From positions 288,001 to 352,000 of the forward strand of contig CAVTHK010000003.1 in the NCBI GenBank assembly GCA_963734495.1: DNA of 64,000 nucleotides. The letters run 5' to 3'. Shown one piece after another: positions 365 through 24,298 of the stretch. Position numbers and translations under genes: made by a program. This DNA comes from an uncultured Spirochaetota bacterium (GTDB lineage: Bacteria; Spirochaetota; Spirochaetia; SZUA-6; CAVTHK01). The notes beneath the pieces were generated by a model. It did not search any database. It saw only the letters and a program-made list of their open reading frames with translations, and was not told where the DNA came from. How positions within the stretch are numbered: position 1 is the stretch's first letter; each line of letters opens with the position of its first letter.

Positions 365-616
365 GTGCGGTGCAGTGTGGGGGAGCTCCCGGTCGGCGCG
401 AGCGCCGTCGTGGTCGGGTACGGCGAGGCCCGCCCCGGCTACCGGGCGAGGCTTCTGTCCATGGGTCTCACGCGCGGGGCCCGGGTCCGGGTGGCCCGCC
501 TCGCGCCGCTCGGCGACCCCGTGCAGGTCCAGGTCCGCGGCGTCTCGCTCACGCTCCGGCGCGAGGAGGCGCGGGTGCTCATCCTCGAGACCGACGACGA
601 CGCCGCGGCCGGGTGA
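365..616 (+). CDS. feoA: Ferrous iron transport protein A
   Basis: RLLSMGLTRGARVRVARLAPLGDPVQVQVRGVSLTLRREEA is the FeoA signature; GGGAGG precedes GTG 365. Confidence 0.93.
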   Translation: MRCSVGELPVGASAVVVGYGEARPGYRARLLSMGLTRGARVRVARLAPLGDPVQVQVRGVSLTLRREEARVLILETDDDAAAG

Positions 617-630
617 GGGAGCAACGACCC

Positions 631-3024
631 ATGGAATCCTGCTGCGGGACGCGCTGTCCGGCGGCTCGCCGCTGCGCGCCGGCCCCGGCCGCACGGGCGG
701 TTGCCGCGCTGGCGGGCAATCCGAACTCGGGCAAGACGACGCTGTTCAACGCCCTCACCGGGAGCCATCAGCGGGTCGGGAACTGGCCGGGAGTGACGGT
801 CGAACGGAGGGAAGGCGCGCTTGCCGACGGCGGGCGCGAAGCCGTCCGCGTCGTCGATCTTCCCGGCATCTACTCGCTTGCTGCCGGGTCGGAAGACGAG
901 GTTGCCGCCCGGGACTTCCTCCTGAGCGGCGAGCCCGGCCTCGTGGTGAGCGTCGTCGATGCGACCAGCCTCTCTCGCGGCCTGTTCCTCACCATTGGTC
1001 TCCTCGAGATGAAGGTGCCCGTCCTCGTCGTGCTCACGATGATGGACCTGGCAAGGCGGCGAGGGATCGCGATCGACGCGGAGCATCTCGCGGGTCTCCT
1101 CGACTGCCCTGTCGTGGCCGTCGACGCCACCAGCGCGAAGGACGCCGGGCGGGTCGGGGGCGCCATCCGCGCGGCGCTGGATCTCCGGCGGATCTCATCG
1201 TTCCGCGTGAGCTACGCGCCCGCGATCGAGTCGTGCCTCGCGGAGCTCGGTCCGCTGCTCGCCGGTCTCGCCGCCGGGATCGGCGCGGACGAACGGTGGG
1301 TCGCGCTCGAGCTGATCGGGGGCGACGCGTGGATCGCGCGGCGCGCGGCCGAGGCTTCAGCCGTGACTGAAGAGCATGCGGGCGGCGTCCGCCGCGGCCT
1401 GCGCGCCTCGATCGGCGAGGAGCCGGACGTCGCGGTCGCGGACGCGCGGTTCGCCCTGGCGCGCTCGCTGTCGGGCCCGGCGTCGCGGGAGCCCGCCGCG
1501 CGGGGGACGGTGACCGAGAGGGTGGACCGCGTGCTGCTCAACCGCTTCCTCGCCCTCCCGATCTTTCTCGCGGCGATGTACCTGACGTTCTGGTTCACGA
1601 TGAGCGTCGGGGGCGCTTTCGTCGGTTTCTTCGACCGGATCGCGGGCACGCTCTTTGTCGACGGTCCCGCCGCGCTGCTCGCCGGCGCCGGGGCCCCCGG
1701 CTGGCTCATCGCCCTGGCCGCAGGAGGGCTCGGCGCAGGCCTGCGCGCCGTGGCGGCGTTCGTGCCGGTCCTCTTCGCCATGTTTCTTGCGCTCGCCGCG
1801 CTCGAGGAGTCCGGCTACATGGCGCGGGCCGCCTTCGTCATGGACCGCATCATGCGATGCGTCGGCCTTCCCGGGAGGGCGTTCGTGCCGATGATGGTGG
1901 GGTTCGGGTGCACGGTCCCTGCGATCATGAGCACCCGCACCCTCGAGACCCGGCGCGACCGGTTCATGACGATCTTCATGGCGCCGAGCATGTCCTGCGG
2001 CGCGAGGCTGCCGGTCTACGCGTTCTTCGCGGCTGCATTCTTTCCGGACGCTTCCGGAGCGGTGGTCTTCTCGCTCTACGCCGCCGGTGTCCTCGTGGCG
2101 CTGCTGACCGGTCTTCTGCTCAAATCGACGCTGTTCCGCGGCGCGGAGTCCTGCTTCGTCATGGAGCTGCCGCCGTATCACGTGCCGCGGGTGCGCGCTG
2201 CGGTCGCTCAGGCGTCGTTCAGGCTCAAGGGGTTCGTGATGAGGGCGGGCGCCGCAATCGCCCTGATCGCGACCGTTCTCGGGCTGGCGAACACCATCTC
2301 CGCGGGCGGACTCCCGGCGCGCGGCGGCCGCGGCGAGACGGTCCTGTCCGCGGCGGGCAAGGTCGTCGCCCCCGTCTTCGAGCCGATGGGCGTCCGCGGC
2401 GACAACTGGCCGGCCGCGGTGGCGCTGCTCACCGGCCTGTTTGCTAAGGAAGCGGTGGTGGGGACGCTGAGCTCCCTCTACGGCCAGGGCGGGGCGGTGG
2501 AGCGGGCGGCCTCCTTTGATCCGATCGCCCGTATCCGCGAGGCCCTGGCTTCGGTCCCTGTCGGGCTGGCGCAGGCCGCGGCGCGCCTGGTCGACCCGCT
2601 GGGGCTTCGGGCGGGCGGCGCTGCGCCCCGGGACGCCGGAACGTTCGCTCGCCTGCGCGAGCGCTTCAGCCCCGCGGCTGCATACGCGTACCTGCTGTTC
2701 GTGCTGCTGTATTTCCCCTGCGTGGCGTCCATGGGTGCGGCGCTGCGGGAGATGGGAGCGGGCCTGGCCCTGGCCCTTGCCGGCTACCTCACGGCAGTCG
2801 CGTGGTCAGTGGCGACGCTGTTCTATCAGCTTGCGGCGGGGCCGAGGCCGCTGCCCGTCGCGCTCGCGCTCGCGGTGGCAGCCGCCGTGGTGGGTGTCTT
2901 TGCTCTGGCGGGAAGGAGCGGCCGCGACGCCGCGGCCGCTCCGATGGATCTGCCTACAGCCGCGACCGGGCCGCGTAGTGCGTGTGCAGCAGGTGATGCG
3001 AGCGCTCCCCGAGCGGCTCTTTGA
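631..3024 (+). CDS. feoB: Ferrous iron transport protein B
   Basis: G1 GNPNSGKT, NWPGVTVE, DLPGIYSL; membrane domain with LEESGYMARAAF, GFGCTVPA, FVMELPPY and LLYFPCVA. Confidence 0.96.
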   Translation: MESCCGTRCPAARRCAPAPAARAVAALAGNPNSGKTTLFNALTGSHQRVGNWPGVTVERREGALADGGREAVRVVDLPGIYSLAAGSEDEVAARDFLLSGEPGLVVSVVDATSLSRGLFLTIGLLEMKVPVLVVLTMMDLARRRGIAIDAEHLAGLLDCPVVAVDATSAKDAGRVGGAIRAALDLRRISSFRVSYAPAIESCLAELGPLLAGLAAGIGADERWVALELIGGDAWIARRAAEASAVTEEHAGGVRRGLRASIGEEPDVAVADARFALARSLSGPASREPAARGTVTERVDRVLLNRFLALPIFLAAMYLTFWFTMSVGGAFVGFFDRIAGTLFVDGPAALLAGAGAPGWLIALAAGGLGAGLRAVAAFVPVLFAMFLALAALEESGYMARAAFVMDRIMRCVGLPGRAFVPMMVGFGCTVPAIMSTRTLETRRDRFMTIFMAPSMSCGARLPVYAFFAAAFFPDASGAVVFSLYAAGVLVALLTGLLLKSTLFRGAESCFVMELPPYHVPRVRAAVAQASFRLKGFVMRAGAAIALIATVLGLANTISAGGLPARGGRGETVLSAAGKVVAPVFEPMGVRGDNWPAAVALLTGLFAKEAVVGTLSSLYGQGGAVERAASFDPIARIREALASVPVGLAQAAARLVDPLGLRAGGAAPRDAGTFARLRERFSPAAAYAYLLFVLLYFPCVASMGAALREMGAGLALALAGYLTAVAWSVATLFYQLAAGPRPLPVALALAVAAAVVGVFALAGRSGRDAAAAPMDLPTAATGPRSACAAGDASAPRAAL

Positions 3025-4726
3025 GCCACGTCTCGTAGAGCTTCTGGATGTCGGGGTTGAGGTGGCTCTTGCGCAGCGTCTTGCCCTCGTCCTCGCGGTA
3101 GATCGCAGCGATGCGGGCCTTGCGCACCTCATCGGTGGTAAAGCGCGGCTGGCCGCCGCCGCCGATGCAGCCGCCGGGGCAGGTCATCACTTCGACAAAG
3201 TGGTACTGGCCGGCGCCGCTCTTGATCCTCTCCATCAGGATCCGGGCGTTTCCCAGGCCGTGGGCGACCGCGGTCCGCAGCTCGACCCCTTCGAGGAAGC
3301 GCCAGTCGGGAAGCGTCCCTTCGAGCCTGATCGCCGCCTCCTTGACCCCCTGCAGCCCCTCGAGCGGCGTGACGTGGAGGCCGCCGACCGGGATCTCGCG
3401 GCCGGTCACCAGCTCGTACGCGGTGCGCAGCGCCGCCTCCATGACTCCGCCGGTATTGGCAAAGATGTCGGCCGCGCCGGTGGAGAGGCCGAGCGGGGCG
3501 TCCATCTGGTCGTCGGGGAGCGAGACGAAATCGATGCCGGCCCCGTCGATCATCTGGGCGAGCTCGCGCGTCGTGAGCACGTAGTCGACGTCCTGCTGGC
3601 CGCTTGCGTTCATCTCGGGCCGCTGCGCCTCGAACTTCTTGGCCGTGCACGGCATGACCGAGACCACGACGATGTCCTCGGCCCGCCTGCCGATCTGCTC
3701 GGCGTAGAAGGTCTTGGCCAGGGCGCCGAACATCTGCTGCGGGCTCTTGCAGGTCGAGAGGTTCGGCAGGTACTCCGGGTAGAAGTGCTCGGTGTACTTG
3801 ATCCAGCCCGGCGAGCAGCTCGTGAACTGGGGGAGAGCCACCGGGCGCTTCTCGACGAGGGCTTTCTTGAGCCTCATCAGGAGCTCGGTGCCCTCCTCGA
3901 CGATCGTGAGGTCGGCCGTGAAGTTGGTGTCGAAGACCTTGGCGAAGCCGAGCCGCCGCAGGGCGGAGACCATCTTGCCGGTGACCAGCGTGCCGGGCGG
4001 GAGCCCGAAGCACTCCCCGAGGGCGGCGCGGATGGCGGGCGCGGTCTGCACGATGACCACCTTCTTCGGGTCCTCCAGGGCGCGGAAGACGCCGTCGGCG
4101 TGGCTGGACTCCACGATCGCGCCGACGGGGCAGACCGCCGCGCACTGCCCGCACTGCACGCAGGCGACGTCGGCGAGGTTCGCCGCAAAGGCGGGCGCCA
4201 CCTGGGTGCGGTAGCCGCGGTACTGCGGGAAGAGGGCGCCCACGCCCTGCACGTCGTTGCACGCGGTCACGCACCGGCGGCACTTGATGCACTTGCCGGA
4301 GTCGCGGGAAAGAGCCGGCGTGCTGCGGTCGAGCCGCACCGCGGCCTTCTCGCCCGTGTAGCGGATGTCGCGAATCCCGAGCTGGTGGGCGAGCGCCTTG
4401 AGCTCGCAGTCCTCGCTCCGGTCGCAGGTCTGGCAGTCGCCTTCGTGCTCCGACAGCAGCAGCTCGACCACCGTGCGGCGCGCGTTGCGGACGCGGCCCG
4501 TGTTGGTGCGCACCTTCATGCCGTCGGAGGCGGGGGTGGCGCAGGCGGCCGAGAGGGTCTTGGCCCCCTCGACCTCCACGACGCACACGCGGCAGGCTCC
4601 GAGGGGCGCGCGCCCCTCGAGGTGGCAGAGGGTGGGGATGTGGACCCCGGCATCCGTGGCAGCCTGGAGGATGGTCGCGCCGGGGGCGACTTTCGTTTCT
4701 CTGTCGTTGATCGTGACGCTAATCAT
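2954..4726 (-). CDS. hydA: [FeFe]-hydrogenase catalytic subunit (group A3, HydA/HndD type)
   Basis: N-terminal 2Fe-2S, His-ligated 4Fe-4S and 2x4Fe-4S motifs; H-cluster motifs FTSCSPGW, MPCTAKKFE and EVMTCPGGCIGGGGQP; C-terminal HLLHTHY. Confidence 0.96.
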   Translation of the reverse strand: MISVTINDRETKVAPGATILQAATDAGVHIPTLCHLEGRAPLGACRVCVVEVEGAKTLSAACATPASDGMKVRTNTGRVRNARRTVVELLLSEHEGDCQTCDRSEDCELKALAHQLGIRDIRYTGEKAAVRLDRSTPALSRDSGKCIKCRRCVTACNDVQGVGALFPQYRGYRTQVAPAFAANLADVACVQCGQCAAVCPVGAIVESSHADGVFRALEDPKKVVIVQTAPAIRAALGECFGLPPGTLVTGKMVSALRRLGFAKVFDTNFTADLTIVEEGTELLMRLKKALVEKRPVALPQFTSCSPGWIKYTEHFYPEYLPNLSTCKSPQQMFGALAKTFYAEQIGRRAEDIVVVSVMPCTAKKFEAQRPEMNASGQQDVDYVLTTRELAQMIDGAGIDFVSLPDDQMDAPLGLSTGAADIFANTGGVMEAALRTAYELVTGREIPVGGLHVTPLEGLQGVKEAAIRLEGTLPDWRFLEGVELRTAVAHGLGNARILMERIKSGAGQYHFVEVMTCPGGCIGGGGQPRFTTDEVRKARIAAIYREDEGKTLRKSHLNPDIQKLYETWLKEPLGERSHHLLHTHYAARSRL

Positions 4727-7700
4727 CGGCTGGCTCCTTGGGGTACTGCGGGGGCTGCGTGCGCCGAGGCGGCCGAGCGGCGCGGCCGCGGCGCACCTGC
4801 TCGAGGGTGAGCTCGGGCGGCGTGATCACCGTCTTCCCGAAGTCGCAGCGCAGGCACCGGCACGCCTGCTTGAGCGCCACGGCCTCGTTCCACGGGAGCT
4901 CGACCTCGTCGAAGTTGTGCCTTCGGCGCTCGACGGCGATCGAGGGCATCTTCTCCCTCGGCGTGGCCACCGGGTCGGCCTCGGGGTCGAAGAACGTGTC
5001 CTCCGTCCTCTCCGTGCGCCAGAAGGCGTTGTAGCCTCCGCTCAGGTACAGGTCCATGGCGACCGCGGCGCGTTCGCCCCCGGCGATCGCTTCGACGACC
5101 GACGACGGGCCGCTGGCCGCGTCGCCGCCGGCGAAGACCCAGTCCAGGGACGTCTGGCCGGTGACCGGATCGGCGGAGATGAAGCCGTCGTCGGTGAGCG
5201 CCACCGCCGCCCCGCCGAGGATCTGCCGCGCGTCCAGCCTCTGGCCGATCGCCGCGATCACCTGGTCGGCCTCGACCTCGAGCTCGGCCGCGCTCGCCTT
5301 GGCGCGCCTGCGGCCGCTCCTGTCGAATTCGCCGAGCGACATGGTGACGCAGCGCAGGCCCGTGATCTTCCTGCCGCGGTCGCGCAGGACCGCGACCGGC
5401 TGCGTGAGCGTCATCAGCTCCACGCCTTCCTGCAGCGCCTCGTCGATCTCTTCGGCATACGCCGGCATCTGCTCGCGGGTGCGGCGGTAGAGGACGGTGA
5501 CCTTTTCCGCCCCGAGGCGCAGCGCCGTGCGCGCAGCGTCGATGGCGGCGTTTCCGCCGCCGATGATCGCGACCTTGCGCCCGACTTCGCACGGAGCCGC
5601 GGATGTTGTACTGCTTGAGGAACGGGACGGCCTGGACGACGCCCGGGCCCTCGGCGCCTTCGATGTCGAGCTCGATGCCTTCGGGCGCACCCACCCCGAG
5701 GAAGACGCTCTCGTAGCCCCAGTTCTTGAGGTCGGCGAGGGTAAAGTCGGCGCCGAGCCTTCGGCCGGTCTCGATGTCGACGCCCATGCGCTCGATCATG
5801 CGGATCTCGCGGGCCATGGTCTCGCGGGGCAGGCGGTAGGCGGGGATCGTCTGGGTGAGCATCCCGCCGGGCGCGGATCTCCGCCTCGAAGACCTTGGGC
5901 TTGTAGCCCAGACGGGCGAGGAAGTAGGCGCATGCGAGGCCGCCGCGGCCCCGCGCCCACGATGGCGATCTTGCGCGCGGCGTTCGCCGCGTTCTCCCGC
6001 ACCTCGGGGAGCTGAATGGTCACCTCCTGGTCGACCATGAAGCGCTTGATCGCCGCGGACGGAGACCGGCGCGTCCAGCGACGTGCGGCGGCACTTGTCC
6101 TCGCAGGTGTGGAAACAGACGCGGCCGCAGACGGCGGCGAACGGGTTGCGCTCGCGGTGCAGCTTGAGCGCCTCGGCGTAGCGCTTCTCGGCAACCAGCG
6201 AGACGAAGCCCGGCACGTTGACCCCCGCGGGGCAGGCGCTCTGGCAGGGCGCGCGCACGAGCGAGGGGCAGACGCCCGCTTCGCAGTGGCGGTCCCGGAT
6301 GTGCTGCTCGTACTCGTGGCGGAAGTGCCGTATGGTGGAGAGCACCGGGTTGGGCGCGGTCTGGCCGAGGCCGCAGAGCGCCGTCTCCTTGATCTGCTGG
6401 CCGAGCTCGACCAGCCGGTCGATGTCCTCCATGTGCCCCTTGCCCGCGCAGATCCGCTCGAGGATCTCGAGCATCCGCTTGGTGCCCACGCGGCAGGGGA
6501 CGCACTTGCCGCACGACTCGTCCTGGACGAACTCCAGGAAGAAGCGCGCGACGTCGACCATGCACGTGTCGTCGTCCATGACGATGAGCCCGCCCGAGCC
6601 CATGATCGCACCGAGCTCGGTGAGGGTCTTGTAGTCGAGCGGGACGTTGAGGTGCTCCTTGGAGATGCAGCCGCCCGACGGACCCCCGACCTGGGCGGCT
6701 TTGAAGGTCTTGCTCCCCTTGATGCCGCCGCCCACGTCGTAGATGAGCTCGCCGAGAGGCGTGCCGATCGGGACCTCGACCAGCCCGGTGTTGTTGACCG
6801 CGCCGGCGAGGGCGAAGACCTTGGTGCCCTTGCTGTCCGCGCTGCCCATGGAAGCGTACCAGGCGGCGCCGTTGAGGATGATGGCGGGGACGTTGTTGTA
6901 GGTCTCTACGTTGTTCAGGACGGTCGGCCTGCCGCGCAGGCCCTTCTGCGCCGGGAACGGCGGGCGCGGCCGAGGCTCGCCGCGCTTGCCCTCGATCGAG
7001 GCCATGAGCGCGGTCTCCTCGCCGCAGACAAAGGCGCCGGAGCCCATGCGGATCGCGAGGTCGAAGGAGAAGCCGGTCCCGAGGATGTCCTCGCCGAGGA
7101 GCCCCCGCTCGCGCGCCTGCTTGAGCGCCGCGTCGAGCCGCTCGACCGCGAGCGGGTACTCGGCCCGCACGTAGATGTACCCGCGGCTCGCCCCGATCGC
7201 GAAGGCGCCGATGACCATGCCTTCGATGACGCTGTGGGGGTCGCCCTCGAGGACGCTGCGGTTCATGAACGCGCCAGGGTCGCCTTCGTCGGCGTTGCAG
7301 AGGATGTACTTCTGTCCGTCCTCGGAGGCCGCCTTGCGCGTGAAGTCCCACTTCATCCAGGTGGGGAAACCGGCGCCGCCCCGGCCGCGAAGGCCCGACC
7401 GCTTGATCTCGTCGATGACCGTTTCGGGGGTCATCTGGGAGAGCACCTTGGCGAGGGCCTGGTAGCCGTCGTTGCCGATGTAGTCCTCGATGTCGAGCGG
7501 GTCGATGCGGCCGCAGTTGCGCAGCACCACCTTGGTCTGCCTGCGGAAATACTCCAGGTCCCGCTCGGTGCGCAGCTGGGCGTCGCCGTCGATCATCGTT
7601 TCCAGGACCTCGGGCACCCTGTCCTCGGTGACCCCTTCGAACCAGGCGCCGCTGGGCTGGAAGACCATGACCGGTCCCTTGGCGCACGGCCCGAGGCAGC

Positions 7701-7974
7701 CGGTCTGCACGATGCGGGCCTTGGCGCCGCGCGCCTCGAGCTCCTTTTCGAGCGCGGCCTTGACCTTGAGCGCGCCCGAAGCGAGGCAGCCGCCGCCGGT
7801 GCAGAGCCGGATCTCCATCTCGGCGGCCCGCGCGTCGCGCGCCTCCTGGACTCTCTTGCGGACGGTGTCGAGCTCCTCGATCGAGCCGATCCTGGCGGGC
7901 CCGGCCGTCCGGCTGGTCGCCTGGCCGACCTTGACCTTCACCTTGGTTTCCTTTCCGCCTTCGCCGAACTTCAT
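4719..7974 (-). CDS. hydB: NuoF/HydB-like flavin subunit fused to a C-terminal GltD/NfnB-like FAD/NAD(P)H module (frameshifted near 6050, 5940, 5880, 5590)
   Basis: Thioredoxin-like 2Fe-2S (CTGGGC...CLGPC), [49 protein letters not shown]; then APCQSACPAG...CGRVCFHTCEDKC, IAIVGAGP, VAIIGGGNAAID...LYRR, VFAGGD and CLRCD. ATGA overlap with hydC. Confidence 0.88.
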
Positions 7975-8507
7975 GCCTTCTCCTCCCCCTGCTCGGCCTG
8001 GGTGAGCAGCTCGCGCACGCGCGCAGGCTTGACCCGCTGGTGGACCTCGTCGTTGACCATGACGGCGGGGGCGAGGCCGCACGCTCCGAAGCAGCGGCCG
8101 ATCTCGAGCGAGAACTGGCGGTCGGGCGTCGTCTGCCCGACCTCGATGTGCAGCGTGTCCTGAAGGGACTTCAGCACGTCCTTGCCGCCGCGCACGTAGC
8201 AGGCCGTGCCGAGGCAGACCCGCACGAGGTTCTTGCCGCGCGGAACGGTGGAGAAGTAGGAGTAGAAGGTCACCACCCCGGTGACTTCGCTGTAGGGCTT
8301 CTCGAGCCTGAGCGCGATGTGCTTGAGCACGCACGCGGGCAGGTACCCGAGCAGGTCCTGGGCCTTCTGGAGCACGGGGATCAGGGCGCTGTCCGGATCG
8401 GGGAACTCGTCGATGACGCGATCCAGGATCGCCAGCTGTTCGTCGGCGATCCGTTCCGCTTCCTGCGGCGAGGGATTCGCGACTCCGGGATGCACGGCCT
8501 GGCTCAT
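7971..8507 (-). CDS. hydC: NuoE/HydC-like 2Fe-2S subunit
   Basis: LIPVLQKAQ, VVTFYSYF, VCLGTACYVRG and RCFGACGLAP; AGGAGG before ATG 8507. Confidence 0.93.
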   Translation of the reverse strand: MSQAVHPGVANPSPQEAERIADEQLAILDRVIDEFPDPDSALIPVLQKAQDLLGYLPACVLKHIALRLEKPYSEVTGVVTFYSYFSTVPRGKNLVRVCLGTACYVRGGKDVLKSLQDTLHIEVGQTTPDRQFSLEIGRCFGACGLAPAVMVNDEVHQRVKPARVRELLTQAEQGEEKA

Positions 8508-8579
8508 GAACACCTCCTAAGGCTTCGCGGGGGGCCCCCAGATCGCCTGCCTCACGGCTACCGGGGCCCTTTTCCCCCG

Positions 8580-8930: not shown

Positions 8931-9059
8931 GGGGACACGACGTGCGTTCGTTGCTGACCGCGGGTGCGCGCAGTGGGATGGCAGCGTGGGCGACGGCACC
9001 TCACTGATCGACAACGGCGCGACCAGGCGATGAACGGCTGAGACGTCATAGGAGGTCGC

Positions 9060-10827
9060 ATGAGCCAGGTCTGGAGCATCGCCGAAGTGACGGCCCGCTA
9101 CGGGCGGGAGCGCGACAGGCTTCTGGACATCCTCCGTGAGGTTCAGGCCGAGCACGGGTTCGTCTCCGACGAGGCCGTGCGTGAGATCGCGCACGCCCTC
9201 GGCATCCACAAAGTCGAGGTGCACGACGCGGCGACGTTCTACAATTTCCTCTCGCGCAAGCCCAAAGGCCGCACGGTCATCCGCCTCGCCAAGGGCGTGG
9301 TGGAGCGGCAGCATGGCCTGGCCGAGGTGGCCGCCGCCTTCGAGCAGGCGGTGGGCGTGCGCTTCGGGGAGACCACCGCGGACGGCGCCATCAGCCTCGA
9401 GTACACGTCCTGCATCGGGATGAGCGACCAGCCGCCCTCGGCGCTCGTGGACGGCCAGGTCGTGGGAAGCATCCGGCCCGAAGAGGTCCCGGGCATGGTG
9501 GCGGAGCTCCGCGAGCACGGGCACCTCGCCCGCTCGCGCGTCGAAACCAACCTGGTGGTCGCAGGGGCGTGCATCTTCGCCCCCATGGAGCGGGGCCGCG
9601 CCATCCGCTCCGCGGTCAACATAACGCCCGACCAGGTGATCGCCGAGCTCAACCGCGCGAGACTGCGCGGGCGCGGCGGGGCCGGGTTCCCGACCGCGAT
9701 GAAGTGGGACTTCTGCCGCAAGGCGCACGGCCGCGCCCACTACATCGTCTGCAACGCCGACGAAGGCGAGCCGGGGACCTTCAAGGACCGCGTGATCTTC
9801 AGCCTGTCGCGCGACCTCGTGATCGAAGGGCATGACGGTCGCCGCCTACGCAATCGGCGCGAGCTTCGGCCTCCTGTACCTGCGCGGCGAGTACGCCTTT
9901 CTCCAGGAGCGCATCGAGGAGGTCCTCGCGCGGCGCAGGCACCAGGGTCTGCTGGGCAATCACATCTGCGGCAAGGAAGGCTTCGACTTCGACATCCGCG
10001 TCCAGATGGGCGCGGGCGCGTACGTCTGCGGCGAGGAGTCGTCGCTGCTGGAGTCCGCGGAGGGCAAGCGCGGCGCCCCGCGCGACCGCCCGCCGTTCCC
10101 CGTGACCAAGGGCTACCTGGGCCAGCCCACGGCCGTCAACAACGCCGAGACGCTCTGCTGCGCGGCGCGGGTGCTGGAAAAGGGGGCCGGCTGGTTCTCC
10201 GGGATCGGCACCAGGGACTCGACGGGCACCAAGCTCTTCAGCGTCTCCGGCGACTGCACGGCGCCCGGCGTCTACGAGCTGCAGTTCGGGCACGAGCGTC
10301 AACAAGCTGCTCGAGATGGTCGGCGCCGAGGACGTGCAGGCCGTGCAGGTCGGCGGGCCGTCGGGCGCCTGCGTCGCGCCCAAGGACTTCGGCCGCAGGC
10401 TCTGCTTCGAGGACCTGGCGACCGGCGGCTCCGTCATGGTGTTCGGCAAGGACCGGGACCTGCTGCAGGCCGTGCGCGACTTCACCGAGTTCTTCGTCGA
10501 GGAGTCGTGCGGCTGGTGCGCCCCCTGCCGCGCCGGCACGACGCTGCTGCTGCGCATGCTCGAGCGGATCCAGGAGGGGCGGGCCACCCGCGCGGACCTG
10601 CACCAGATGGAAGACCTCGCCGCCACGGTGCAGGCACTGCAGCCGCTGCGGCCTGGGGCAGACCGCGCCCAACCCGTTCGTGACGACGCTGCGCAACTTC
10701 CCGGAGCTGTACCAGGCGCGCCTCGCGCCCCGAGGAGTACGTGCCCGCGCTCCGCCTGGAGGAGGCGCTCGCGGCGGGCGAGCGCGCCGCGGGCCGGCGC
10801 GCCGCGACCAGGGAGGCCGGCGAATGA
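9060..10827 (+). CDS. hoxF: NAD-reducing [NiFe]-hydrogenase diaphorase large subunit, NuoE+NuoF fusion (frameshifted)
   Basis: NuoE-like N-terminus, then [38 protein letters not shown] and [12 protein letters not shown], spread over ORFs 9060, 9832 and 10316; GGAGG RBS. Confidence 0.9.
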
Positions 10828-11539
10828 ACACCAAGGTCACCTTCGTGCTGGACGGCCGCGACGTCGAGGCCAAGCCGGGCCAGACGATCCTGGAGGCGGC
10901 GGACGCCGCGGGCATCTACATCCCGCGGCTGTGCTACCACGAGGACCTGCGTGCCCGGCGGCCACTGCCGGATCTGCTCGGTCAAGGTCAACGGGAAGGT
11001 CACCAACGCGTGCACCATGCCCGTCATGGACGGGATGGTGGTCGAGAAGCGACACGCCGGAGCTGACCGCTCACCGCAAGCGGATCGTCGAGATGCTCTT
11101 CGTGGAGGGCAATCACTTCTGCCCCATCTGCGAGAAGAGCGGCAGCTGCGAGCTGCAGGCGCTGGCGTACCGGTTCGGGATGACGGCGCCGACCTACCCG
11201 TACCTGCCGCGGCTCCGCGGCGGTGGACGCGAGCGCACCCCGACGTGTTCATCGACCGCAACCGCTGCGTGCTGTGCGGCCGGTGCGTGCGCGCCTCGCG
11301 CGACCGCGACCACAAGGGCGCTGTTCGGCTTCGAGGGCCGGGGCGTCTGCGCATGCGGGTCGTCGTGGATTCGCTCGACGGCCTCGGCGGCACGGCCCTG
11401 GTGCGCGAGGACGCGGCCGCCGCCATCTGCCCGACGGGCAGCATCGTCGTGAAGCGCGTCGGCTACGCGACGCCGTACGGCAGGCGGCACGTACGACAAG
11501 GCGCCGATCGGCTCGGAGATCGAGAAGAAGGGGTCCTGA
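10824..11539 (+). CDS. hoxU: Diaphorase small Fe-S subunit (frameshifted)
   Basis: [66 protein letters not shown] and ICPTGSI. Confidence 0.9.
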
Positions 11540-11591
11540 GGCCGGCCGACGGCGCGACCGGCCCTGAGGCCGCACGAAAAGGGGGAACAGC

Positions 11592-12136
11592 ATGGCGGGC
11601 AAGCCCAAAGTCGCGACGTGTGCTCTGACGGGCTGCTTCGGGTGCCACATGTCGCTGCTGGACATCGACGAGCGCATCCTCGATCTGATCGAGCTCGTCG
11701 ATTTCGACAAGTCGCCGATCGACGACATCAAGGAGCTCACGGGTCCCGTCGACATCGGGATCATCGAGGGAGGCGTGTCCACCGAGGAGAACGTCGAGGT
11801 GCTGCGCTCGTTCCGCGAGCACTGCAAGGTGCTCGTGGCCATCGGCGAGTGCGCGCTCACGGGCGGCGTCCCGTCGATGCGCAACCTCGTGCCGCCTGCA
11901 GGAGTGCCTCGAGGAGGCGTACCTGAAGGGGCCGACGGTCGTCGACGGCCGGATCCCCGACGACCCGTCGCTTCCGCGTGATCCTCGACAGGGTCTATCC
12001 CTGCCACGAGGTGGTCAAGATCGACTACCTCCTTCCGGGCTGTCCTCCGTCGGCCGACGTGCTCTGGACGGCGCTCTCGGCCCTGCTCAAGGGCGAGGAG
12101 CCGAAGCTGAGCTACGAGCTGATCAAGTACGACTGA
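11592..12136 (+). CDS. hoxY: [NiFe]-hydrogenase small subunit (frameshifted)
   Basis: GCFGCHMSLLDIDER and IGECALTGGVPSMRN; downstream frame reads VVKIDYLLPGCPPSAD. Confidence 0.92.
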
Positions 12137-12150
12137 AGGGAGGCGCGCTC

Positions 12151-13633
12151 ATGAAGACCAACGGCAACGGCAAGCACAAGGGCACGGCGGGCGCGCAGGC
12201 CACCCGGAAGATCGTCATCAACCCCGTCACGCGCGTCGAGGGGCACGGCAAGGTCACCATCCATCTCGACGCGAAGGGCGGCATCGACCAGGCCCGGTTC
12301 CACGTCGTCGAGTTCCGCGGGTTCGAGCGCTTCGTGCGCGGCCGGCTGTACTGGGAGGTGCCGGTCATCGTCCAGCGGCTCTGCGGCATCTGCCCGGTGA
12401 GCCACCTCCTGGCCGCGGCCAAGGCGATGGACGTCATCGTCGGCGCCGACCGGCTCACGCCGACCGCGGAAAAGATGCGGCGGCTGATGCACTACGGCCA
12501 GATCTACCAGTCGCACGCCCTGCACTTCTTCCACCTCGCGTCGCCCGACCTCCTGTTCGGCTTCGACGCGCCGCCGGCGACGCGCAACGTGATCGGCGTC
12601 GCGCGCGAGCACCCCGAGATCGCGACGAAGGCCGTGCTGATGCGCAAGTTCGGCCAGGAGATCATCAAGGCCACCGCGGGAAAGAAGATCCACGGCAACG
12701 GCGCGATCCCCGGCGGGATCAACAAGAACCTCTCGATCGAGGAGCGGGACATGCTCGCCGGCGGCATCGACGACGATGCTCGCCTGGGCGGTCGAGGGGC
12801 TCGAGCTCTACAAGGGGCTGTACACGCAAGGACATCGACGCGGCTCGCCTCGTTCGGGAGCTTCGAGAGCAATTTCGTGAGCATCGTGCGCGACGACGGG
12901 GCCTCGACCTCTACGACGGTCTGCTGCGGGCCAAGGATCCCGACGGCAAGATCATCTTCGACAAGGTGCAAGGCCGCCGACTACCTGGACGTGATCGCCG
13001 AGGAGGTGCGCGGCTGGAGCTACATGAAGTTCCCGTTCATCCGGCCCCTCGGCAAGGAGAAGGGGTGGTACCGCGTCGGACCGCTGGCGCGCATGAACAA
13101 CTGCGACCGCATCGACACGCCGATCGCGGAGGCGGAGCGCAAGGAGTTCCTCGCGCTCGGAGGGAGGCCGCCCGGTCCACTCGACGATGGCCTACCACTG
13201 GGCGCGCCTGATCGAGCTGGTTCACTGCGCGGAGAAGATGAAGGAGCTGCTCGCGGACCCCGACCTCCAGGGGACGGACCTGGTGACGAGCGGCGAGCGG
13301 CGCGGCCGCGGGGTCGGCTGGATCGAGGCGCCGCGCGGCACGCTGTTCCATCACTACGAGGTCGACGATCACGACCAGGTGACGATGGCGAACCTGATCG
13401 TGTCGACGACCAACAACAACGAGCCCATGAACCAGGCGGTGCGCGCGGTCGCGCGAGACCACCTCGCCGGGAAGGCCGAGATCACCGAGGGCCTGCTGAA
13501 CGCGATCGAGGTCGCCATCCGGGCCTACGATCCGTGCCTGAGCTGCGCGACGCACGCGGTCGGCCGCATGCCGCTCGAGGTCGTGCTGCTCGGCTGCGAC
13601 GGGCGGGAGATCTCGCGCGGGAGCAAGGGGTGA
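12151..13633 (+). CDS. hoxH: Group 3d [NiFe]-hydrogenase large subunit (frameshifted)
   Basis: PVTRVEGHGK, L1 QRLCGICPVSH, EAPRGTLFHHY, and L2 AYDPCLSCATH followed by a cleavable C-terminal extension. Confidence 0.95.
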
Positions 13634-14192
13634 GCGGGAGGGCCGGCCGCTCGGTCCTGGTCGTCGGCGTCGGCAACCCCGGCCGGGGCGACGACGGGAT
13701 CGGGCCCGCCCTGGTCGAGCGCCTGGAGGCGCGACGCCGTGCCCGGGCTCGCGCTGGAGTCGGCCTTTCAGCTCTCGCTCGAGCACGCGGCCGCGGTCGG
13801 CGGAGCATCCGACGGTGCTGTTCGTCGACGCGGCCGTCGGCACCGCTGTCGGCCGCGCGGCCGTTCGCGCTGCTGCCGATCGCCCCGGGCGACGGCGCCG
13901 TCACCGGCATCAGCACGCACGCGATGGCGCCCGCGGACGTGCTGGCGGTCTCGCGGCTCGCGTTCGGCGCCGGCGCCGGACGCGTGGCTGCTCGCGGTGC
14001 GGGGCCGCGACTTTCGCGAACGCGAGGGGCTGAGCGCGCGCGGCCCGCCGCAACCTGGCGCGGGCCCTCGAGGCCGCCCGGGCGTTCATCGCCTCGGCGC
14101 TGGATCGCGGCGCGGACCTCCGGTGCCGGACGAAGCGACGAGACGACGGCCGGCGCAAGTCCGACAGGGTGCTGGGGAGGAGTGAAAGATGA
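13630..14192 (+). CDS. hoxW: Hydrogenase maturation endopeptidase (frameshifted; end approximate)
   Basis: VLVVGVGNPGRGDDGIG, AFQLSLEHA, LFVDAA and STHAMAP; GTGA overlap with hoxH. Confidence 0.82.
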
Positions 14193-14567
14193 CCGATCGG
14201 AAGACCATCCTGATCATCGACGATGACGCGGACATCCGGGCCTCCATCCGGATGGTGCTCGAGGCCGCGGGGTTCTCCGTAGGCGAGGCGGGAAGCGCCG
14301 ACGAAGGGCGCCAAGATCGCCCCGAGGATCTCGCCCGACGCCATCATCGTCGACCTGATGATGGAGAGCGTCGACTCGGGGGTGCAGCTCTCGCAGTCCC
14401 TCAAGGAAAGCGGCTACGCCGGCCCCATGTACCTGCTGAGCTCGGCGGGCGACTCCGTGCGCTTCAACCTGGACCCGCGCGAGCTCGGCCTGGCCGGCAT
14501 CTTCCAGAAGCCGATCCAGCACGACCTGCTCGTGCGCACCCTCAAGTCGAAGCTGCACGTCCCGTAG
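14189..14567 (+). CDS. Stand-alone response regulator receiver protein (one frameshift)
   Basis: ILIIDDD...PDAIIVDLMMES...LLSS...FQKP; no output domain. Confidence 0.85.
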
Positions 14568-14601
14568 GCCGGGCCCGCCGGGTCATCGCGCCCCGCTCGG
14601 C

Positions 14602-16107
14602 TCAGGCCTCGGCGCAGGGCAGCGTGACGACGAACGTGCTCCCGCGGTCCGGCGCCGAGTCCACCGAGATCGTGCCGTTGTACTCGTCGAGCACCCTCCG
14701 CACGGTGGCGAGGCCGAGGCCCGTCCCGGGGATGCCCTGCGTCTTCGGGCCGCGAGCCCTGTAGAAGTCCTGGAAGAGGTTGGACACCTCCTCCTGCGTC
14801 ATGCCGATGCCCGTGTCCTGCGAAGCGCGATCTCCCAGCCGCCGCCGAGCCGCTCCTGCCGCTGCGGACCGAGACCGTGAGGCTGCCGCCTTCGCGGTTG
14901 TACTTGATGCCGTTGGAGATCAGGTTCATGAAGATGCGGTCGAGGTCGCCGCGGTCGGCGACGCACGCGCGCCTCGTCGGGCGCCTCGAGGCTCAGGCGC
15001 GATCCCGCGCTTTTCCGCCTGCACGCGGAAGAACTCCAGCTGCTCGTCGAGGACCTGCCGCAGGTCGAGCCCCTGCGCCGACCGCTCGACCTTGCGCGCC
15101 TCGCGACTGCGCAGGAACTGCAGGTCCTTCACGAGGTCCAGCAGCGCTTCGGCGCGCGCCTTGCTCCGCGCCATGATCTCCTTGATCCGCTCGGGCTCCC
15201 GTCGAGCGTGCCCGCGAGCACGACGTCGATGTAGCTGACGATCGCGGCCAGCGGGCTGGTGAGCTCGTGCGCGACCATGGAGACGAAGCGGTTGCGGTCC
15301 TGCTCGGCTTCCCACTCGTCGGTGACGTCGCTGCAGCAGCAGGATCAGCCCCGCGGTCTCCCTCGCCGCGGATGTACGGCGCCGCGTTCAGCTCGAGCCT
15401 GCGGCCCCGGAGCTCGAGCCGCAGCCGCCGGAAGCGGCCGGCCGCCGGCCCGCGCGGCGAGCAGCGTCCTCGACGACGGCCGGTGACCGCGGCGTCGAGG
15501 CCGAGCTCCTCGAGGGCCAGGTCCTCGCGGTAGCGGACGCCGAGCAGCGAACTCGGCCCGCGGGTTCATCAGCACCGGCTTGCGGTTGATGTTGAGCACG
15601 ATCACCCCTTCGCGCATCGAGTTGATGAGCTGGCGCGAGAGGTTGCGCTCGCTGTTGAGCGCGGACAGGTAGGTCTCCCGCTCGCCGGATGAGCCGGCAC
15701 TGCCGCGCCCGCCCGCTCGACGACCTGCAGCAGCTCGTCGGGCGCCGAACGGCTTGACCAGGAAGTCGAAGGCGCCGTGGCGGGTGACCTCGACCGCGGC
15801 CTCGACGGTGGCCAGCGCCGAGACGATGACGACGACCGTCGCGGCCGCTCTCGTTGATGCGCCTCGGTCACCTCGAAGCCGTCGATCCCGGGCATCTTGA
15901 GGTCGACGAGGGCGACGTCGAAGGTCCCGCCCGGCGAGCCGCACCAGCGCCTCGCCGCCGTCCGCGGCCGCGACGACGGAGTGACCCTGGCGCTCGAGGA
16001 TGCGGCGCATGCCCTCGCGCATGCCCTCCTCGTCGTCGACGACCAGGATGCTGAGGGCGCCGCCTCGGAGGACGCTGTCGCGGGGTCGGTCCGACGACCG
16101 CGCTCAC
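14602..16107 (-). CDS. Hybrid histidine kinase REC-PAS-HisKA-HATPase (frameshifted)
   Basis: ILVVDDEEGMR...VDLKMPG...FDFLVKPF; INSMREGVIVLN...MNPRAE (PAS); MVAHELTSPL; NLISNGIKYN; DTGIGM; GTGLGL. Confidence 0.85.
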
Positions 16108-18230
16108 GGCGCGGACCTCTCCGCGCCGACGGCCGCGCCGGCGCCGGCGCCGGGTCCCGCAGCCCGATCTCGAAGCAGGCGCCGCCCTCGGGGCGATTGC
16201 CGCCGCGGATCCAGCCGCCGTGCATCTTGACGATCCCGTAGCAGACCGAGAGGCCCAGTCCCGTGCCCTTGCCGACCGGCTTGGTCGTGTAGAAAGGCGT
16301 GAACAGGTGCTCGAGGACGCCTCTCGGGGATGCCCGGCCCCGTGTCGGACACCGAGACGGTGAACTCCCCGTCGCCCTCCTGCGGTCTCGATCCGGATGC
16401 GTCCCGCCCCCGGGCATCGCCTCGATCGCGTTCTTGATGATGTTGTCGAAGACCTGCCGCAGCTGCGACGAGTCGACGCTGTGAGCCTTCATGCCGTCGT
16501 CGAGGTCGAGCTCGACGCGCACCCGTCCCGCGGGGTCGAGGGCGCGGGCACGGCCCGGGCCGCTTCGCGGACCAGCGCGTTGATGTCGGTCTGCTGACGG
16601 TCGATCTTCTTCTCGCGCGCGAAGTTCAGGATGCCCTGCACGATCGAGCGGGCGCGCTCGGACTCGCGGATGATGCGGTCCGCGTCCGCCGAGCCCCTGC
16701 CCGCTCGCCGCCTTCGGCGAGCTCCTCCCGCAGGAGGTGCGCGTACATGAGCACGACGCCGAGCGGGTTGTTGATCTCGTGGGCGATGCCCGCGGCCATC
16801 TGGCCCATGGAGGCGAGCTTCTCGGCCTGGATCAGGCGGCTCTGGTTCTCCTTGAGGTCCGTGATCGTCGTCCTCGAGCCGCGAGATGAGGTAGGGCAGG
16901 CACATCTCGACCTCGGCGATGCCGCGGTAGACGGCCACCGCCTTCTCCCGGCAGGAGTCGTAGCCGCAGGCGCGGCAGTTCAGCTCGTCCTCGGGGACGC
17001 ACCTTGCCGGTGCTGGCGAGGATCTTGCGGATGTCCTCCTCGGGCACCGGCGCCTCGCGGGTCTTGGATCTGCGCGAACGTCTTGGGGAGGTCGAGCGTC
17101 GAGGTAGCGGGTGTTGGCGGCCGCCCACTCCTCGATGTCGCTGATCAGCGGGACTGCGCTTCATGTAGTCGACGATGTACTTCTTGCGCTCGTAGAAGGT
17201 GAGGTCGTTGGGCATCGCGGGCCCGCCGATGCACCCTTCGCAGAACAGCAGGTCGAAGAGCCTGGTCACCACGGGCCGGCGCTTGCGCACGATCCGGCCG
17301 AGGACTGGAGCAGCTCCGTGACCCGGGCGCTTCCCTCGACGATCATCACCGGGCTCTCCAGCAGGTCGTCGTCGATGGCGGCCGCCTTGAGCAGCCCGCC
17401 GGTGACCGGGTAGATCTGGCCGAGGTTGGCGTGCGGCGGATCGAAATCGCGCGGCGCCGCGGCCTGCGGATCGACGCCGAGGTCCGCGAACAGCTCGATC
17501 AGCTCCTCGAAGGTGAGCACCTCGTCCACGAGGCCGAGTCCGCCGCGCCTCGTCCTTCTTCGCGACGCACGGCCCGATGAAGACGATCGGCGGGAGGCTC
17601 CGCGCCGGTCGGGCGTGAGGCGCTCGCGGATCACGCGCGGCCATCGCCTCCATCGGCGAAACGACGTCGCGCGAGGTGCGGCACGAGCTCGGGGCAGATC
17701 TTCTCCACGTACGAGACGACCGCGGGGCAGGGCGAGCTGATGACGAAGGCCGGCCGACCGGCGGCCGGTCTCATCGCGCACGAGCTGCCCGAATCGCCGG
17801 CGATACTCGTAGGAGACCAGGTCCGCGCCGAAAGCCACCTCGTAGCACGCGGCTGAACCCGCAGGCGGCGACCGCGCCGACGAGGCGCTCGGGCTTGACG
17901 TCGAGGAAGGCGGCGGGAAAGGAGGGCGCGATCATGGCGCAGCACGGCCTGCCCGGAGCGCAGGAGGCGCTCGACCTCGGCGACCGACGAGCGGATCTGC
18001 TTGGCGCCCTGGGAGCACATCGGGACGCAGTAGCCGCAGGAGATGCACTTGGAGGCGATGATCTCGGCCTGGCCGCCGTGCACCTCGATCGCCTTGGTCG
18101 GGCAGGTCCGCACGCAGGAGTAGCACTTCCTGCACTTTTCGGCAGCCGTCAGGACCGCGAGAGAATCACCGGCTGCCTGGCCGTAGCGAGCCCTGCCCGC
18201 GGGCCGCTGCGGTCCCGGAAGTGCCTCCAT
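16104..18230 (-). CDS. Sensory (group C-type) [FeFe]-hydrogenase domain fused to a histidine kinase (frameshifted)
   Basis: [23 protein letters not shown] ferredoxin; [28 protein letters not shown] and [12 protein letters not shown]; FeS domain [11 protein letters not shown]...[42 protein letters not shown]. Confidence 0.88.
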
Positions 18231-18302
18231 CAGGCCCATGATAGCATGCCCGGCTCCCTTGTCCACCGCACTGTCCGCCCTGCCCGTCGAACGGATGACC
18301 GG

Positions 18303-19021
18303 TCACCAGCGCCGCCGCCGTGCCGCCGGAGACGAAGACGTCGGCCCGCAGCGGAAGGCCGCGGTGGAACAGCCTGTGGAAGCCGTCCGGGATCCGCGCG
18401 AGCGCGCGGCCATTCGACGCGAGCGCCGCTGCCGCGGCCGAGGCGGGGATCCACTCGCCCGCGGGAAGCTCGAGCGCCACCTCCCGGCGCTCCGCCTCCG
18501 CTCAGGTCGGTGACGCGCAGGCCGCCCGAGAGGATGCTCTCCGCGAGTCGCGCCGTGTCCAGGTGCCACGGGTCTTCGAGGCGGAGGGCGTCGACGGCCT
18601 CCAGGAGGCGGCTCGTGTTCAGCTCCTCGAGGCGGTACCCGGCTGCGGAGAGGCTGAGGAGGCAGGCTGCCAGGGGCCCCCTCCGCCACGACAGCGCGAG
18701 CGGCGAGCTCTCGCCCTCGCAGATGCCCGCCCGCCGGCAGCAGCTCGACGCCCGCGTGCACCGGGAACGCGAGCACGGGCGTCGGCGCCGCCGCGGGAGC
18801 TCGACGGAGGCGTCCGCGGGCCACGACGGCAGGCGTTCGGCGCGCACGGGACCTCCCGGCTCGCTCCAGACGATCCGGCAGGCGAGGCCGGGGAACCGCG
18901 CCCGCCACGAGTCGGGAGGCTCGGGCAGCAGCAGCCGCTGGGGCCGCGGCGGCAGGTCGCATGCCAGGCATCCCGCGGCCAGCAGCGCGGCGCAGCCGGC
19001 CGCCCGCAGTCGTCGCCTCAT
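18303..19021 (-). CDS. Hypothetical lipoprotein (frameshifted; end approximate)
   Basis: MRRRLRAAGCAALLAAGCLAC has a basic N-terminus, hydrophobic stretch and lipobox-like Cys; no recognisable domain. Confidence 0.5.
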
Positions 19022-23101: not shown

Positions 23102-24298
23102 ATGAAAAAGAAGGTATTCGCGCTGCTGGAGGGCTGCGAAGGCGTCGATCGTTATCTCAGCGCCCTCGAGGGCGACGTGTACAATGTCGAGCGCATCGGC
23201 GCGGACAGCGCCGGGGTCGGCGCCCTGTCCGAGAGGGTGCACGCCCACGCTGCCGCCGAGGCGGCTCCCTTCATTTTTGTCGTGGACAAGAAGAGGTTCC
23301 GGCACGAGGAGTCCAGCCGGGAGATCTCCCTGGCCATGGCGGCCCACGGGATCGCCGTGGAGCCCGTCTTTCTCGTGGTCGCCAGGAATTTCTCCGTGGA
23401 AGAGATGGGCCGCATCCTCCGCCGCGGCAACCTGTTCGTTCTCCCCCGCACGTCCGGGAGCGCCGCGCGCCCGACGGGCTTTGCGCGCTTCAACGCCGCG
23501 CTCGAGAAGGTCTTTGTCGATTTCGAGCTGCAGAGCCGCCTCGCGCGCTACGTGGCCGACGACCTCCAGAGCTTCGCCCACAACGAGCAGCTGCGCTCCA
23601 CCAAGGAGGAGATCGAGCGGGTCAACCAGGAGCTGGCGCTCCAGAACCGCGTCGACGAGCTGACCAAGCTGCTCAACCGCAGGGGCATCATCGAGAGCAT
23701 GAGGATCGCCAAGGGGCGGGCCGGCCGCGAGCGCTGGCGCCTTGCCGCGAAGGCGGAGCTGGTCGACCCGCAGCGCGGGGTTCCCGCCGGCGAGATCAAC
23801 GAATTCTTCGGCCACCTCTCGTGCATGATGATCGACGTCGATCACTTCAAGCACGTCAACGACAGCTACGGGCATGTGGTCGGAGACGAGGTGCTGCGGT
23901 CGATCGGCAAGCTGTTCCACAGGAAGGGCATCTTCCGCGCGGAGGACATCTGCGGCCGCTACGGCGGCGAGGAGTTCACCGTGATCCTGCCCGCCACCAG
24001 CGCCGTCAACGCGTTCGTGCCCGCGGAGAAGTTCCGGGCGGAGCTCGCGCGGCTCAACTTTTCCTCGGAGCGCGGCGAGAAGTTCCGCGTGACCGCGAGC
24101 ATCGGCATCGCGGAGCTCAGCGACTCCGAGGAGACGATCGACGAGATCGTCAGCAAGGCCGACGCGGCGCTCTATCGGGCCAAGGAGAGCGGCCGCAACA
24201 AGACGGTCATCTACGACGAGGACAGCTTTACGCACGACGACGTGTTCCGCGCGTCCGAAAGGCGCGTCGAAGACATCGAGGAGATCGGCGGCGACTGA
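23102..24298 (+). CDS. Diguanylate cyclase (GGDEF domain)
   Basis: DELTKLLNRRG, MIDVDHFKHVNDSYGHVVGD, I-site RAED, RYGGEEF and ADAALYRAKESGRN. Confidence 0.92.
   Translation: MKKKVFALLEGCEGVDRYLSALEGDVYNVERIGADSAGVGALSERVHAHAAAEAAPFIFVVDKKRFRHEESSREISLAMAAHGIAVEPVFLVVARNFSVEEMGRILRRGNLFVLPRTSGSAARPTGFARFNAALEKVFVDFELQSRLARYVADDLQSFAHNEQLRSTKEEIERVNQELALQNRVDELTKLLNRRGIIESMRIAKGRAGRERWRLAAKAELVDPQRGVPAGEINEFFGHLSCMMIDVDHFKHVNDSYGHVVGDEVLRSIGKLFHRKGIFRAEDICGRYGGEEFTVILPATSAVNAFVPAEKFRAELARLNFSSERGEKFRVTASIGIAELSDSEETIDEIVSKADAALYRAKESGRNKTVIYDEDSFTHDDVFRASERRVEDIEEIGGD

Follow-up and report, generated by a model that had tools for sequence, protein, structure and literature searches.

A three-gene module with a predicted [FeFe]-hydrogenase-histidine kinase fusion beside the hox operon of an uncultured spirochaete

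The DNA analysed here (the window) is a stretch of 64,000 nucleotides of contig CAVTHK010000003.1, positions 288,001 to 352,000, from the assembly GCA_963734495.1 of an uncultured Spirochaetota bacterium. The subject of our studies was a group of three signalling genes located in this window next to an operon for a [NiFe] hydrogenase of the Hox type. Two of them encode histidine kinases: the predicted sensor-kinase (HydS-HK), in which domains of an [FeFe] hydrogenase precede those of a kinase, and a second kinase (HK2), which follows it. Both converge on the gene of a lone receiver, which closes the hoxFUYHW operon; all genes of the candidate module except the receiver lie on the minus strand (Table 1). 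The G+C content of the window is 66-73%, and the coding frames are heavily interrupted. No open reading frame (ORF) across the region is longer than 409 amino acids (aa), and the segment 14189-18302 is devoid of any long open frame.

When stop-to-stop fragments were compared with Pfam, the sensor gene, read from 18302 down, gave Fer4 first (E 6.6e-9), then Fe_hyd_lg_C in three pieces (E 1.8e-4, 2.1e-6 and 3.5e-5) and, after this H-domain, FeS (PF04060; 2.1e-10), HisKA (1.4e-8) and HATPase_c (1.9e-14). The HK2 fragments matched Response_reg (2e-12), HisKA (1.6e-5) and HATPase_c (2.7e-17), and a plus-strand Response_reg was divided between two frames (14186-14564). The same arrangement, with intact genes, is present in another genome of the genus (G001). 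There, hoxF, hoxU, hoxY, hoxH, hoxW and a gene for a 127-aa receiver lie on one strand, and a 500-aa REC-PAS-HisKA-HATPase gene and a 699-aa Fer4/Fe_hyd_lg_C/FeS/HisKA/HATPase gene converge on them. A first-pass annotation of the window, made from the sequence alone, had described this domain order, the fusion of hydrogenase and kinase in one gene, the composition of the second kinase, the receiver at the end of the hox operon and the convergence of the genes, and all these elements were confirmed by the fragments together with the intact same-genus locus, in which the domains of the sensor-kinase are not split. HisKA and HATPase_c share an ORF with the H-domain also in three further relatives (G028, G038 and G022) and in the 120 best of 6,990 database matches, which were inspected for architecture (59-88% identity; the named ones are mostly Spirochaetia). 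The hydrogenase-kinase fusion is real, and the genes of the module are conserved.

The frameshifts had been foreseen by the same annotation, and they were repaired by frameshift-aware alignment to the intact orthologues of the same-genus genome. Between positions 9828 and 19605 we counted 65 frame breaks (50 of +1, 8 of +2, 5 of -1 and 2 of -2), that is, 58 insertions and 7 deletions, with no in-frame stops in the alignments and no large deletions. Break sites were free of homopolymer bias, the mean longest run being 2.48 vs 2.55 at random places. A codon-usage Viterbi model detected 2,096 stop-free frame jumps (3.9 per 10 kb) in the 5.38-Mb genome from which the window comes (G000); their distribution is patchy, with 13-16 events per 5-kb bin in patches elsewhere in this genome. 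The same model found 3 events in 81 kb of relatives' loci and none in the 19.8-kb same-genus locus. The strong insertion bias, the absence of stops and the genome-wide patchy pattern indicate that the frame breaks are most likely assembly errors, not gene decay. Seven sequencing runs, each with 5-9% of the sampled words, were considered, and contigs were used from four of them, which are wetland or peat metagenomes; none covers the whole stretch. In these contigs one base is missing at 14304, 14819, 14828, 16868, 17607 and 17638, and each of these six omissions, found in 6 of the 12 rows listed (with 38 further rows), lies within 10 nt of a predicted insertion. The marker-based completeness of the source assembly, 83%, was probably lowered by the frame jumps, mostly single-base insertions outside homopolymers.

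In the intact orthologue of HydS-HK, the N-terminal 2x[4Fe-4S] region was matched by Fer4 families of Pfam, and the H-domain by PF02906 (Fe_hyd_lg_C) with 135.1 bits. The H-domain aligns with HydA of Thermotoga maritima (7p5h_A; E 6e-28) and with other catalytic enzymes. The H-cluster motif strings reported previously for the window were all recovered in its translations, and alignments to catalytic HydA bore out the statement that the relay cysteine and both methionines are replaced and the four cluster cysteines kept. The latter align with those of TmHydA, T. kivui HydA1 and the HydA of G038; the proton-relay Cys299 is changed to Pro (TSCCP reads SSPCP), Met353 to Gly (MPCxxKxxE reads GPCVAKKDE) and Met497 to Leu (ExMxCxxGC reads DLLFCEGC). 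Also kept are the upstream APS motif and the Lys of the H-domain, which we take to hold the diiron site in catalytic enzymes. The C-terminal motif is exactly Cx2Cx4Cx16C, with NCRACGYxSCRxKAxAVxRGxAEVEMC invariant in the family alignment.

The kinase boxes of HydS-HK (AHEINNPL, DNxxKNA, DTGPGI and GTGLGL) are those of a class I (HisKA) kinase. No Pfam match to PAS was obtained in this protein; the FeS match extends to residue 445 and that of HisKA begins at 474, 28 residues lying between them. In an AlphaFold2 model (pLDDT 70.9, pTM 0.53) a single helix extends from residue 440, the last cluster cysteine, to residue 504, past His483. Low confidence in the segment 442-473 is what one would expect when a coiled coil is modelled as a monomer. 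Foldseek related the N-terminal half to HydA of T. kivui, CbA5H and TmHydA, and the kinase half to ZraS and FixL-chimera kinases. Judged by these features and by the HydDB description (our tree having family members only), HydS-HK fits group C1, which appears in the HydDB table as 'Histidine kinase-linked (putative)' (Sondergaard et al. 2016, PMC5037454). The earlier assignment to group C is in line with this entry, by which kinase-linked members are predicted only. The sensor-kinase family is widespread and already has its place in the HydDB scheme, as C1.

In HK2, the PAS domain is represented by a PAS_8 match in the same-genus orthologue (22.6 bits vs a cut-off of 21.8), and the kinase boxes read AHELTSPL, DTGIGM and GTGLGL. 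The best natural PDB matches of its REC domain are the receivers of NtrC, NtrC1 and DctD. The lone receiver has the residues DD, the phospho-accepting D (IIVDLMM), S and K-P, and its same-genus orthologue matches Response_reg with 62.8 bits; it most resembles an RssB-like protein, single-domain receivers and receivers of the OmpR family. The kinase core of HydS-HK is closest to AtoS/ZraS, and that of HK2 to PnpS/PhoR. Such family likeness gives a weak hint that the sensor would act on the HK2 receiver and HK2 on the lone receiver, which is the cascade put forward in the first-pass annotation.

The two kinase genes had been proposed to be translationally coupled through a GTGA sequence, and this proposal stands in part. 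On the minus strand, GTGA is present at 16107-16104, so placed that the GTG start of HK2 overlaps the TGA of the sensor gene, and the overlap is supported because it is homologous to an ATGA stop/start overlap of the same-genus pair (MSA.. vs MST..). As assembled, however, it is continuous with neither the upstream nor the downstream frame, and one further indel fix is needed on each side. The term phosphorelay, applied previously to the three proteins, could not be retained in its strict sense, that of a His-Asp-His-Asp chain with an Hpt or Spo0B-like His-phosphotransfer domain: no Hpt family was seen in Pfam scans of these proteins and their neighbours, one of which went to E values of up to 1. 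Pfam scans of window 1-35 kb revealed no DNA-binding regulator, in agreement with the claim that no such output is encoded locally.

How far this gene organization is shared was assessed in the family at large, in which at least 589 loci, one genome per species, were confirmed in many phyla. Neighbours were counted in the 71 loci with a full-length sensor-kinase among 80 kept loci, the other 9 being left out. The kept loci belong to Spirochaetota, Planctomycetota, Bacteroidota, Myxococcota, Actinomycetota, Chloroflexota, Acidobacteriota, Thermodesulfobacteriota, Hydrogenedentota, Lentisphaerota, Melainabacteria and others. A REC-HisKA-HATPase gene is located within 2.5 kb in 63 of the 71 loci (59 of the 60 with room), as a short form without PAS in 49 cases and with a PAS domain in 14. 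In 51 loci there is an adjacent lone receiver, and 49 have both genes. Upstream, the same strand carries a HydA gene ending no more than 1.1 kb away in 54 of the 63 loci having 2 kb of room, and 30 of the 71 loci contain HydE/F/G homologues, in many cases immediately downstream; the usual place of the module is just after hydABC, and often before hydE/F/G. All motifs are invariant in a 15-sequence family alignment with a mean column identity of 66%. The module of sensor-kinase, lone receiver and REC-kinase is thus the near-universal family norm, and the synteny that the first-pass annotation proposed to examine is conserved.

As for hox, hoxH was found in only 1 of the 71 loci (L024); the 5.2-kb contig of L023, which is that of L020, also holds a hoxH end. 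Hox linkage is a rare exception confined to a spirochaete subclade. In a quick tree of family members, built without the duplicate L023 and the truncated L051, the three Hox-linked copies (G001, contig C122 of G022, and L024) group together (SH-aLRT 84), nested in a strongly supported spirochaete clade (SH-aLRT 100), the remaining members of which are located after hydABC. G022 has a second, distant copy, which adjoins HydA. No description of the three-gene module was found in the searchable literature, and the accessible parts of PMC3362086 and PMC4676874 contain nothing on it.

Other genes accompany the module at particular loci. In many phyla (loci L026-L096, e.g. L067:13626-16117 and L092:13540-16082), radical-SAM genes of the HydG/HydE type come right after the REC-kinase, and in Bacteroidales a Rex-like gene (Put_DNA-bind_N + CoA_binding) takes their place. 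A dCache-HAMP gene and a GAF-SpoIIE (PP2C) gene are divergent from hydCBA in G028 (L018:14880-18037), and G038 has a dCache-HAMP gene at the same place (L019:1774-2970).

The features of the window are collected in Table 1. The HydB-like subunit of the neighbouring [FeFe] hydrogenase contains Complex1_51K, NADH_4Fe-4S and Fer4_20 and runs on into Pyr_redox_2. In HydA of this enzyme (the window; L116, G001:C27), motif P1 reads TSCSP in both genomes of the genus. The relatives and the second HydA of the same-genus genome have TSCCP in P1, and TSCSP appears to put Ser at the position of a cubane-binding Cys. HoxW matched the hydrogenase maturation protease family TIGR00072 with 78.9 bits. A promoter scan of 11 kb gave 2 matches vs a mean of 0.5 in shuffles; a terminator scan gave 4 vs 2.8 expected, none of them between the convergent genes. 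The gene located 5' of the sensor-kinase (18289-19012, minus strand) has no Pfam family and, by eye, a lipoprotein-like signal start; its same-genus homologue is 59% identical. Farther away lie feoAB (377-2955, plus strand), adjoining hydA, and, 5 kb past the sensor gene, a gene for a GGDEF protein (23117-24295, plus strand) whose 230-aa N-terminus is without an assigned family.

Table 1. Features of the window, with frame breaks and amino acid identity relative to the orthologues in the same-genus genome G001
Feature	Position	Strand	Content or remark	Frame breaks	Identity to G001
HydS-HK sensor-kinase	16104..18230	-	2x[4Fe-4S] ferredoxin, [FeFe]-hydrogenase H-domain, C-terminal Cx2Cx4Cx16C FeS, HisKA, HATPase_c; precise stop uncertain	18	78.6% (692 aligned residues, 0 stops)
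HK2 second kinase	14583..16107	-	NtrC-like receiver, PAS, HisKA, HATPase_c	15	74.0% (493 residues, 0 stops)
HK2 stop	14602-14604 as read; 14583-14585 once frame corrected	-
Lone receiver	14189..14567	+	about 125 aa; last gene, 3' of hoxW; frame break near 14306	1	84.0% (125 residues; 127-aa orthologue)
NAD-linked [NiFe] Hox-type operon	9057..14140	+	hoxF (E-F fused), hoxU, hoxY, hoxH, hoxW; tblastn and frameshift-aware alignment to G001	25 (hox genes together)
hoxF				4	81.8%
hoxU				7	84.1%
hoxY				2	81.3%
hoxH				6	84.0%
hoxW				6	66.2%
Unnamed gene				3	59.0%
DUF4416 gene				3	69.3%
DAHP synthase gene			next door	0	86.5%
HydABC-type [FeFe] hydrogenase	2954..8516	-	divergent from hox; Fe_hyd_lg_C 318.7 bits; NF040763 869 bits (cut-off 765)
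hydA	2954-4726	-
hydB	4734-7974	-	fused to pyridine-nucleotide oxidoreductase module
hydC	7977-8516	-
Sigma-70-like promoter	18238..18265	-	TGGACA-16-TATCAT, TG before -10; consensus match only, just 5' of sensor-kinase start

Taken together, we consider it probable, though by no means certain, that the three proteins encoded at this locus form a functional signalling module, the input of which is a sensory-type [FeFe]-hydrogenase-histidine kinase fusion of the C1 type, and that its frameshifts are errors of assembly. In the mechanism we propose, H2 would react slowly at an H-cluster without a fast proton path. The resulting change would pass via the C-terminal [4Fe-4S] domain, the last cysteine of which heads the long predicted helix leading into the DHp helix with the phospho-accepting His, no PAS being interposed between the cluster domain and DHp. 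This signal would set the rate of autophosphorylation, and the phosphate might then reach the N-terminal, NtrC-like receiver of HK2, the lone receiver, or both. By family likeness, the most probable wiring would run from HydS-HK to the HK2 REC domain and from HK2 to the lone receiver, which probably acts through protein-protein contact. In most phyla the module is placed after hydABC; in this spirochaete subclade it appears to have moved beside [NiFe] hox, with the receiver presumably co-transcribed with hox, and from this position it probably adjusts Hox, HydABC or both to the amount of H2. That placing the receiver in the hox operon would also provide feedback is a speculation.

Several observations weigh against this interpretation. 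In TamHydS, a protein of group D, the C-terminal cluster is not reduced by H2 (PMC13104023); this argues against a simple redox relay and makes a conformational relay the more likely one. No tested member of group C1 was found in the searchable literature. An adjacent lone receiver was not seen in 20 of the 71 loci; the wiring is drawn from family likeness only, and the gene order (sensor, lone receiver, REC-kinase) fits other wirings equally well. The wetland and peat contigs which lack the extra bases are 88-99% alike to the window and thus come from relatives, not necessarily from the same strain. Finally, in the source genome HydE and HydG gave no match in family searches and in tblastn with a relative's proteins, and HydF gave GTPase-domain matches only; none of the three exceeded the cut-off in the 99%-complete same-genus genome. 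Because the source assembly is only 83% complete and is also without hypD (no match anywhere by family search and tblastn), the absence of HydEFG there is weak evidence, and the case rests on the same-genus genome, in which hypD lies between hydABC and hox (G001:C27:9991-11037) with one TGA inside the match. Failure to find HydEFG leaves the diiron subcluster without a known synthesis route in this genus, and an occupied H-cluster of HydS-HK is thus a putative one. The relatives searched alongside the source genome were the same-genus genome and 39 others; a hydG-hydF-hydE cluster is present in G028 and G038, and HydG was above cut-off in 4 of the 25 genomes (the source genome and 24 relatives) with a Fe_hyd_lg_C match of more than 250 bits.

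The kinase might instead be an iron-sulfur redox sensor, the H-domain of which holds only a [4Fe-4S] cubane in this genus without HydEFG; it would report the reduction of the ferredoxin/NAD(P)H pool via its N-terminal ferredoxin domain, and tune Hox and HydABC in this manner. The failure to find HydEFG in either genome, the rarity of HydG noted above and TSCSP in the neighbouring HydA of the genus, vs TSCCP in relatives, all favour such a function. We nevertheless regard it as rather unlikely, as 15 diverse members, those of this genus included, do not vary in the diiron-site residues (APS, SPCP, GPCVAKK and FCEGC), hydE/G/F come immediately after the module in other phyla, and active [FeFe] hydrogenases in organisms without HydEFG are on record, an alternative pathway having been proposed (PMC11216029). 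We also hold it unlikely that the sensor-kinase and the neighbouring TSCSP HydA both work without HydEFG, either through an unknown bacterial diiron pathway or with a cubane-only redox sensor rewired to [NiFe] Hox, such that an [FeFe]-type sensor governs a [NiFe] enzyme via a cascade of kinase, REC-kinase and lone receiver. The linear order of signalling has a more substantial competitor, which we judge possible if still the less probable arrangement: HydS-HK may pair with the adjacent lone receiver, the REC-kinase being a second branch or a phosphate sink, or else the lone receiver may control HK2 allosterically, as DivK does when acting on DivL/CckA. Adjacency usually marks cognate pairs, and in most loci a distance of 45-250 nt separates the sensor-kinase gene from that of the lone receiver directly 3' of it, the REC-kinase gene coming third; on the other hand, the REC-kinase is the commoner of these two neighbours (63 vs 51 of the 71 loci), and AtoS/ZraS-like cores usually pair with NtrC-type receivers, which is the type of the HK2 REC domain. 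As to the frame breaks, a decaying pseudogene cluster with real frameshifts would suit the observations that every one of the nine genes from hoxF through the sensor-kinase is interrupted, that the gene of DAHP synthase has no break, and that hypD is also missing from the source assembly. Such decay is very improbable in view of the 58:7 ratio of insertions to deletions, the lack of in-frame stops and large deletions at orthologue identities of 59-84%, the equally dense patches elsewhere in the source genome, and the absence of the extra bases from independent contigs.

The [FeFe] hydrogenases of groups C and D are putative H2 sensors, and a kinase-fused member would allow their sensing, and the route by which the signal leaves them, to be addressed. 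Neither of the two studied enzymes, TmHydS and TamHydS, provides an enzymatic output that could be measured; the kinase fusion offers autophosphorylation as a direct readout, and its conserved neighbours name two candidate receiver domains. We consider the family-wide three-gene module the most useful result of this work. Lodged between hydABC and hydEFG in many phyla, it constitutes a concrete regulatory unit for fermentative H2 metabolism, and its Hox-linked copy suggests cross-talk between the [FeFe] and [NiFe] classes of hydrogenases.

Of the systems to which this locus can be compared, the one with HoxA as its DNA-binding output is alike in that an H2-sensing hydrogenase is coupled to a histidine kinase controlling hydrogenase genes. 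It differs in its unrelated metal site and fold, in having separate sensor and kinase subunits, and in its DNA-binding regulator, of which none is encoded here. Loss of Cys299, Met353 and Met497 is described as a sensory trait of group C, the C-terminal Cx2Cx4Cx16C cluster as occurring in groups C and D, and PAS after this cluster as a hallmark of the M2f subclass (PMC8163306). TmHydS of T. maritima (group C, M2f) shares with HydS-HK the N-terminal 2x[4Fe-4S] region, the C-terminal Cx2Cx4Cx16C motif, non-conservation of Cys299 and replacement of Met353 by Gly (PMC8163306, PMC13104023). In TmHydS, however, a PAS domain follows the C-terminal cluster, no kinase is fused and Met497 is replaced by Ser, whereas HydS-HK continues straight into HisKA and has Leu in place of Met497. 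TamHydS of Thermoanaerobacter mathranii (group D, M2e) resembles HydS-HK in the absence of PAS, the change of Met497 to Leu and the retained C-terminal cluster (PMC8163306, PMC13104023); a kinase-like ATPase gene in its neighbourhood is comparable to the kinase link seen here. It differs in the unfused kinase, in Ser at the place of Met353 (Gly here) and in an AraC regulator alongside. The closest counterpart is group C1 itself, uncharacterised H-domain proteins linked to a histidine kinase, proposed to be H2 sensors and often located beside group A3 hydABC. HATPase_c was seen in C1 proteins of Hydrogenedentota in a 2024 paper (PMC11406978); P1-P3 cysteines are hardly detectable in that set, whereas they are clear here. 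Unlike in the C1 descriptions, the module is located beside a [NiFe] hox operon, the last gene of which encodes the receiver, and the second kinase has a PAS domain. The locus is a real, assembly-damaged member of a known, uncharacterised class in an unusual, Hox-linked arrangement.

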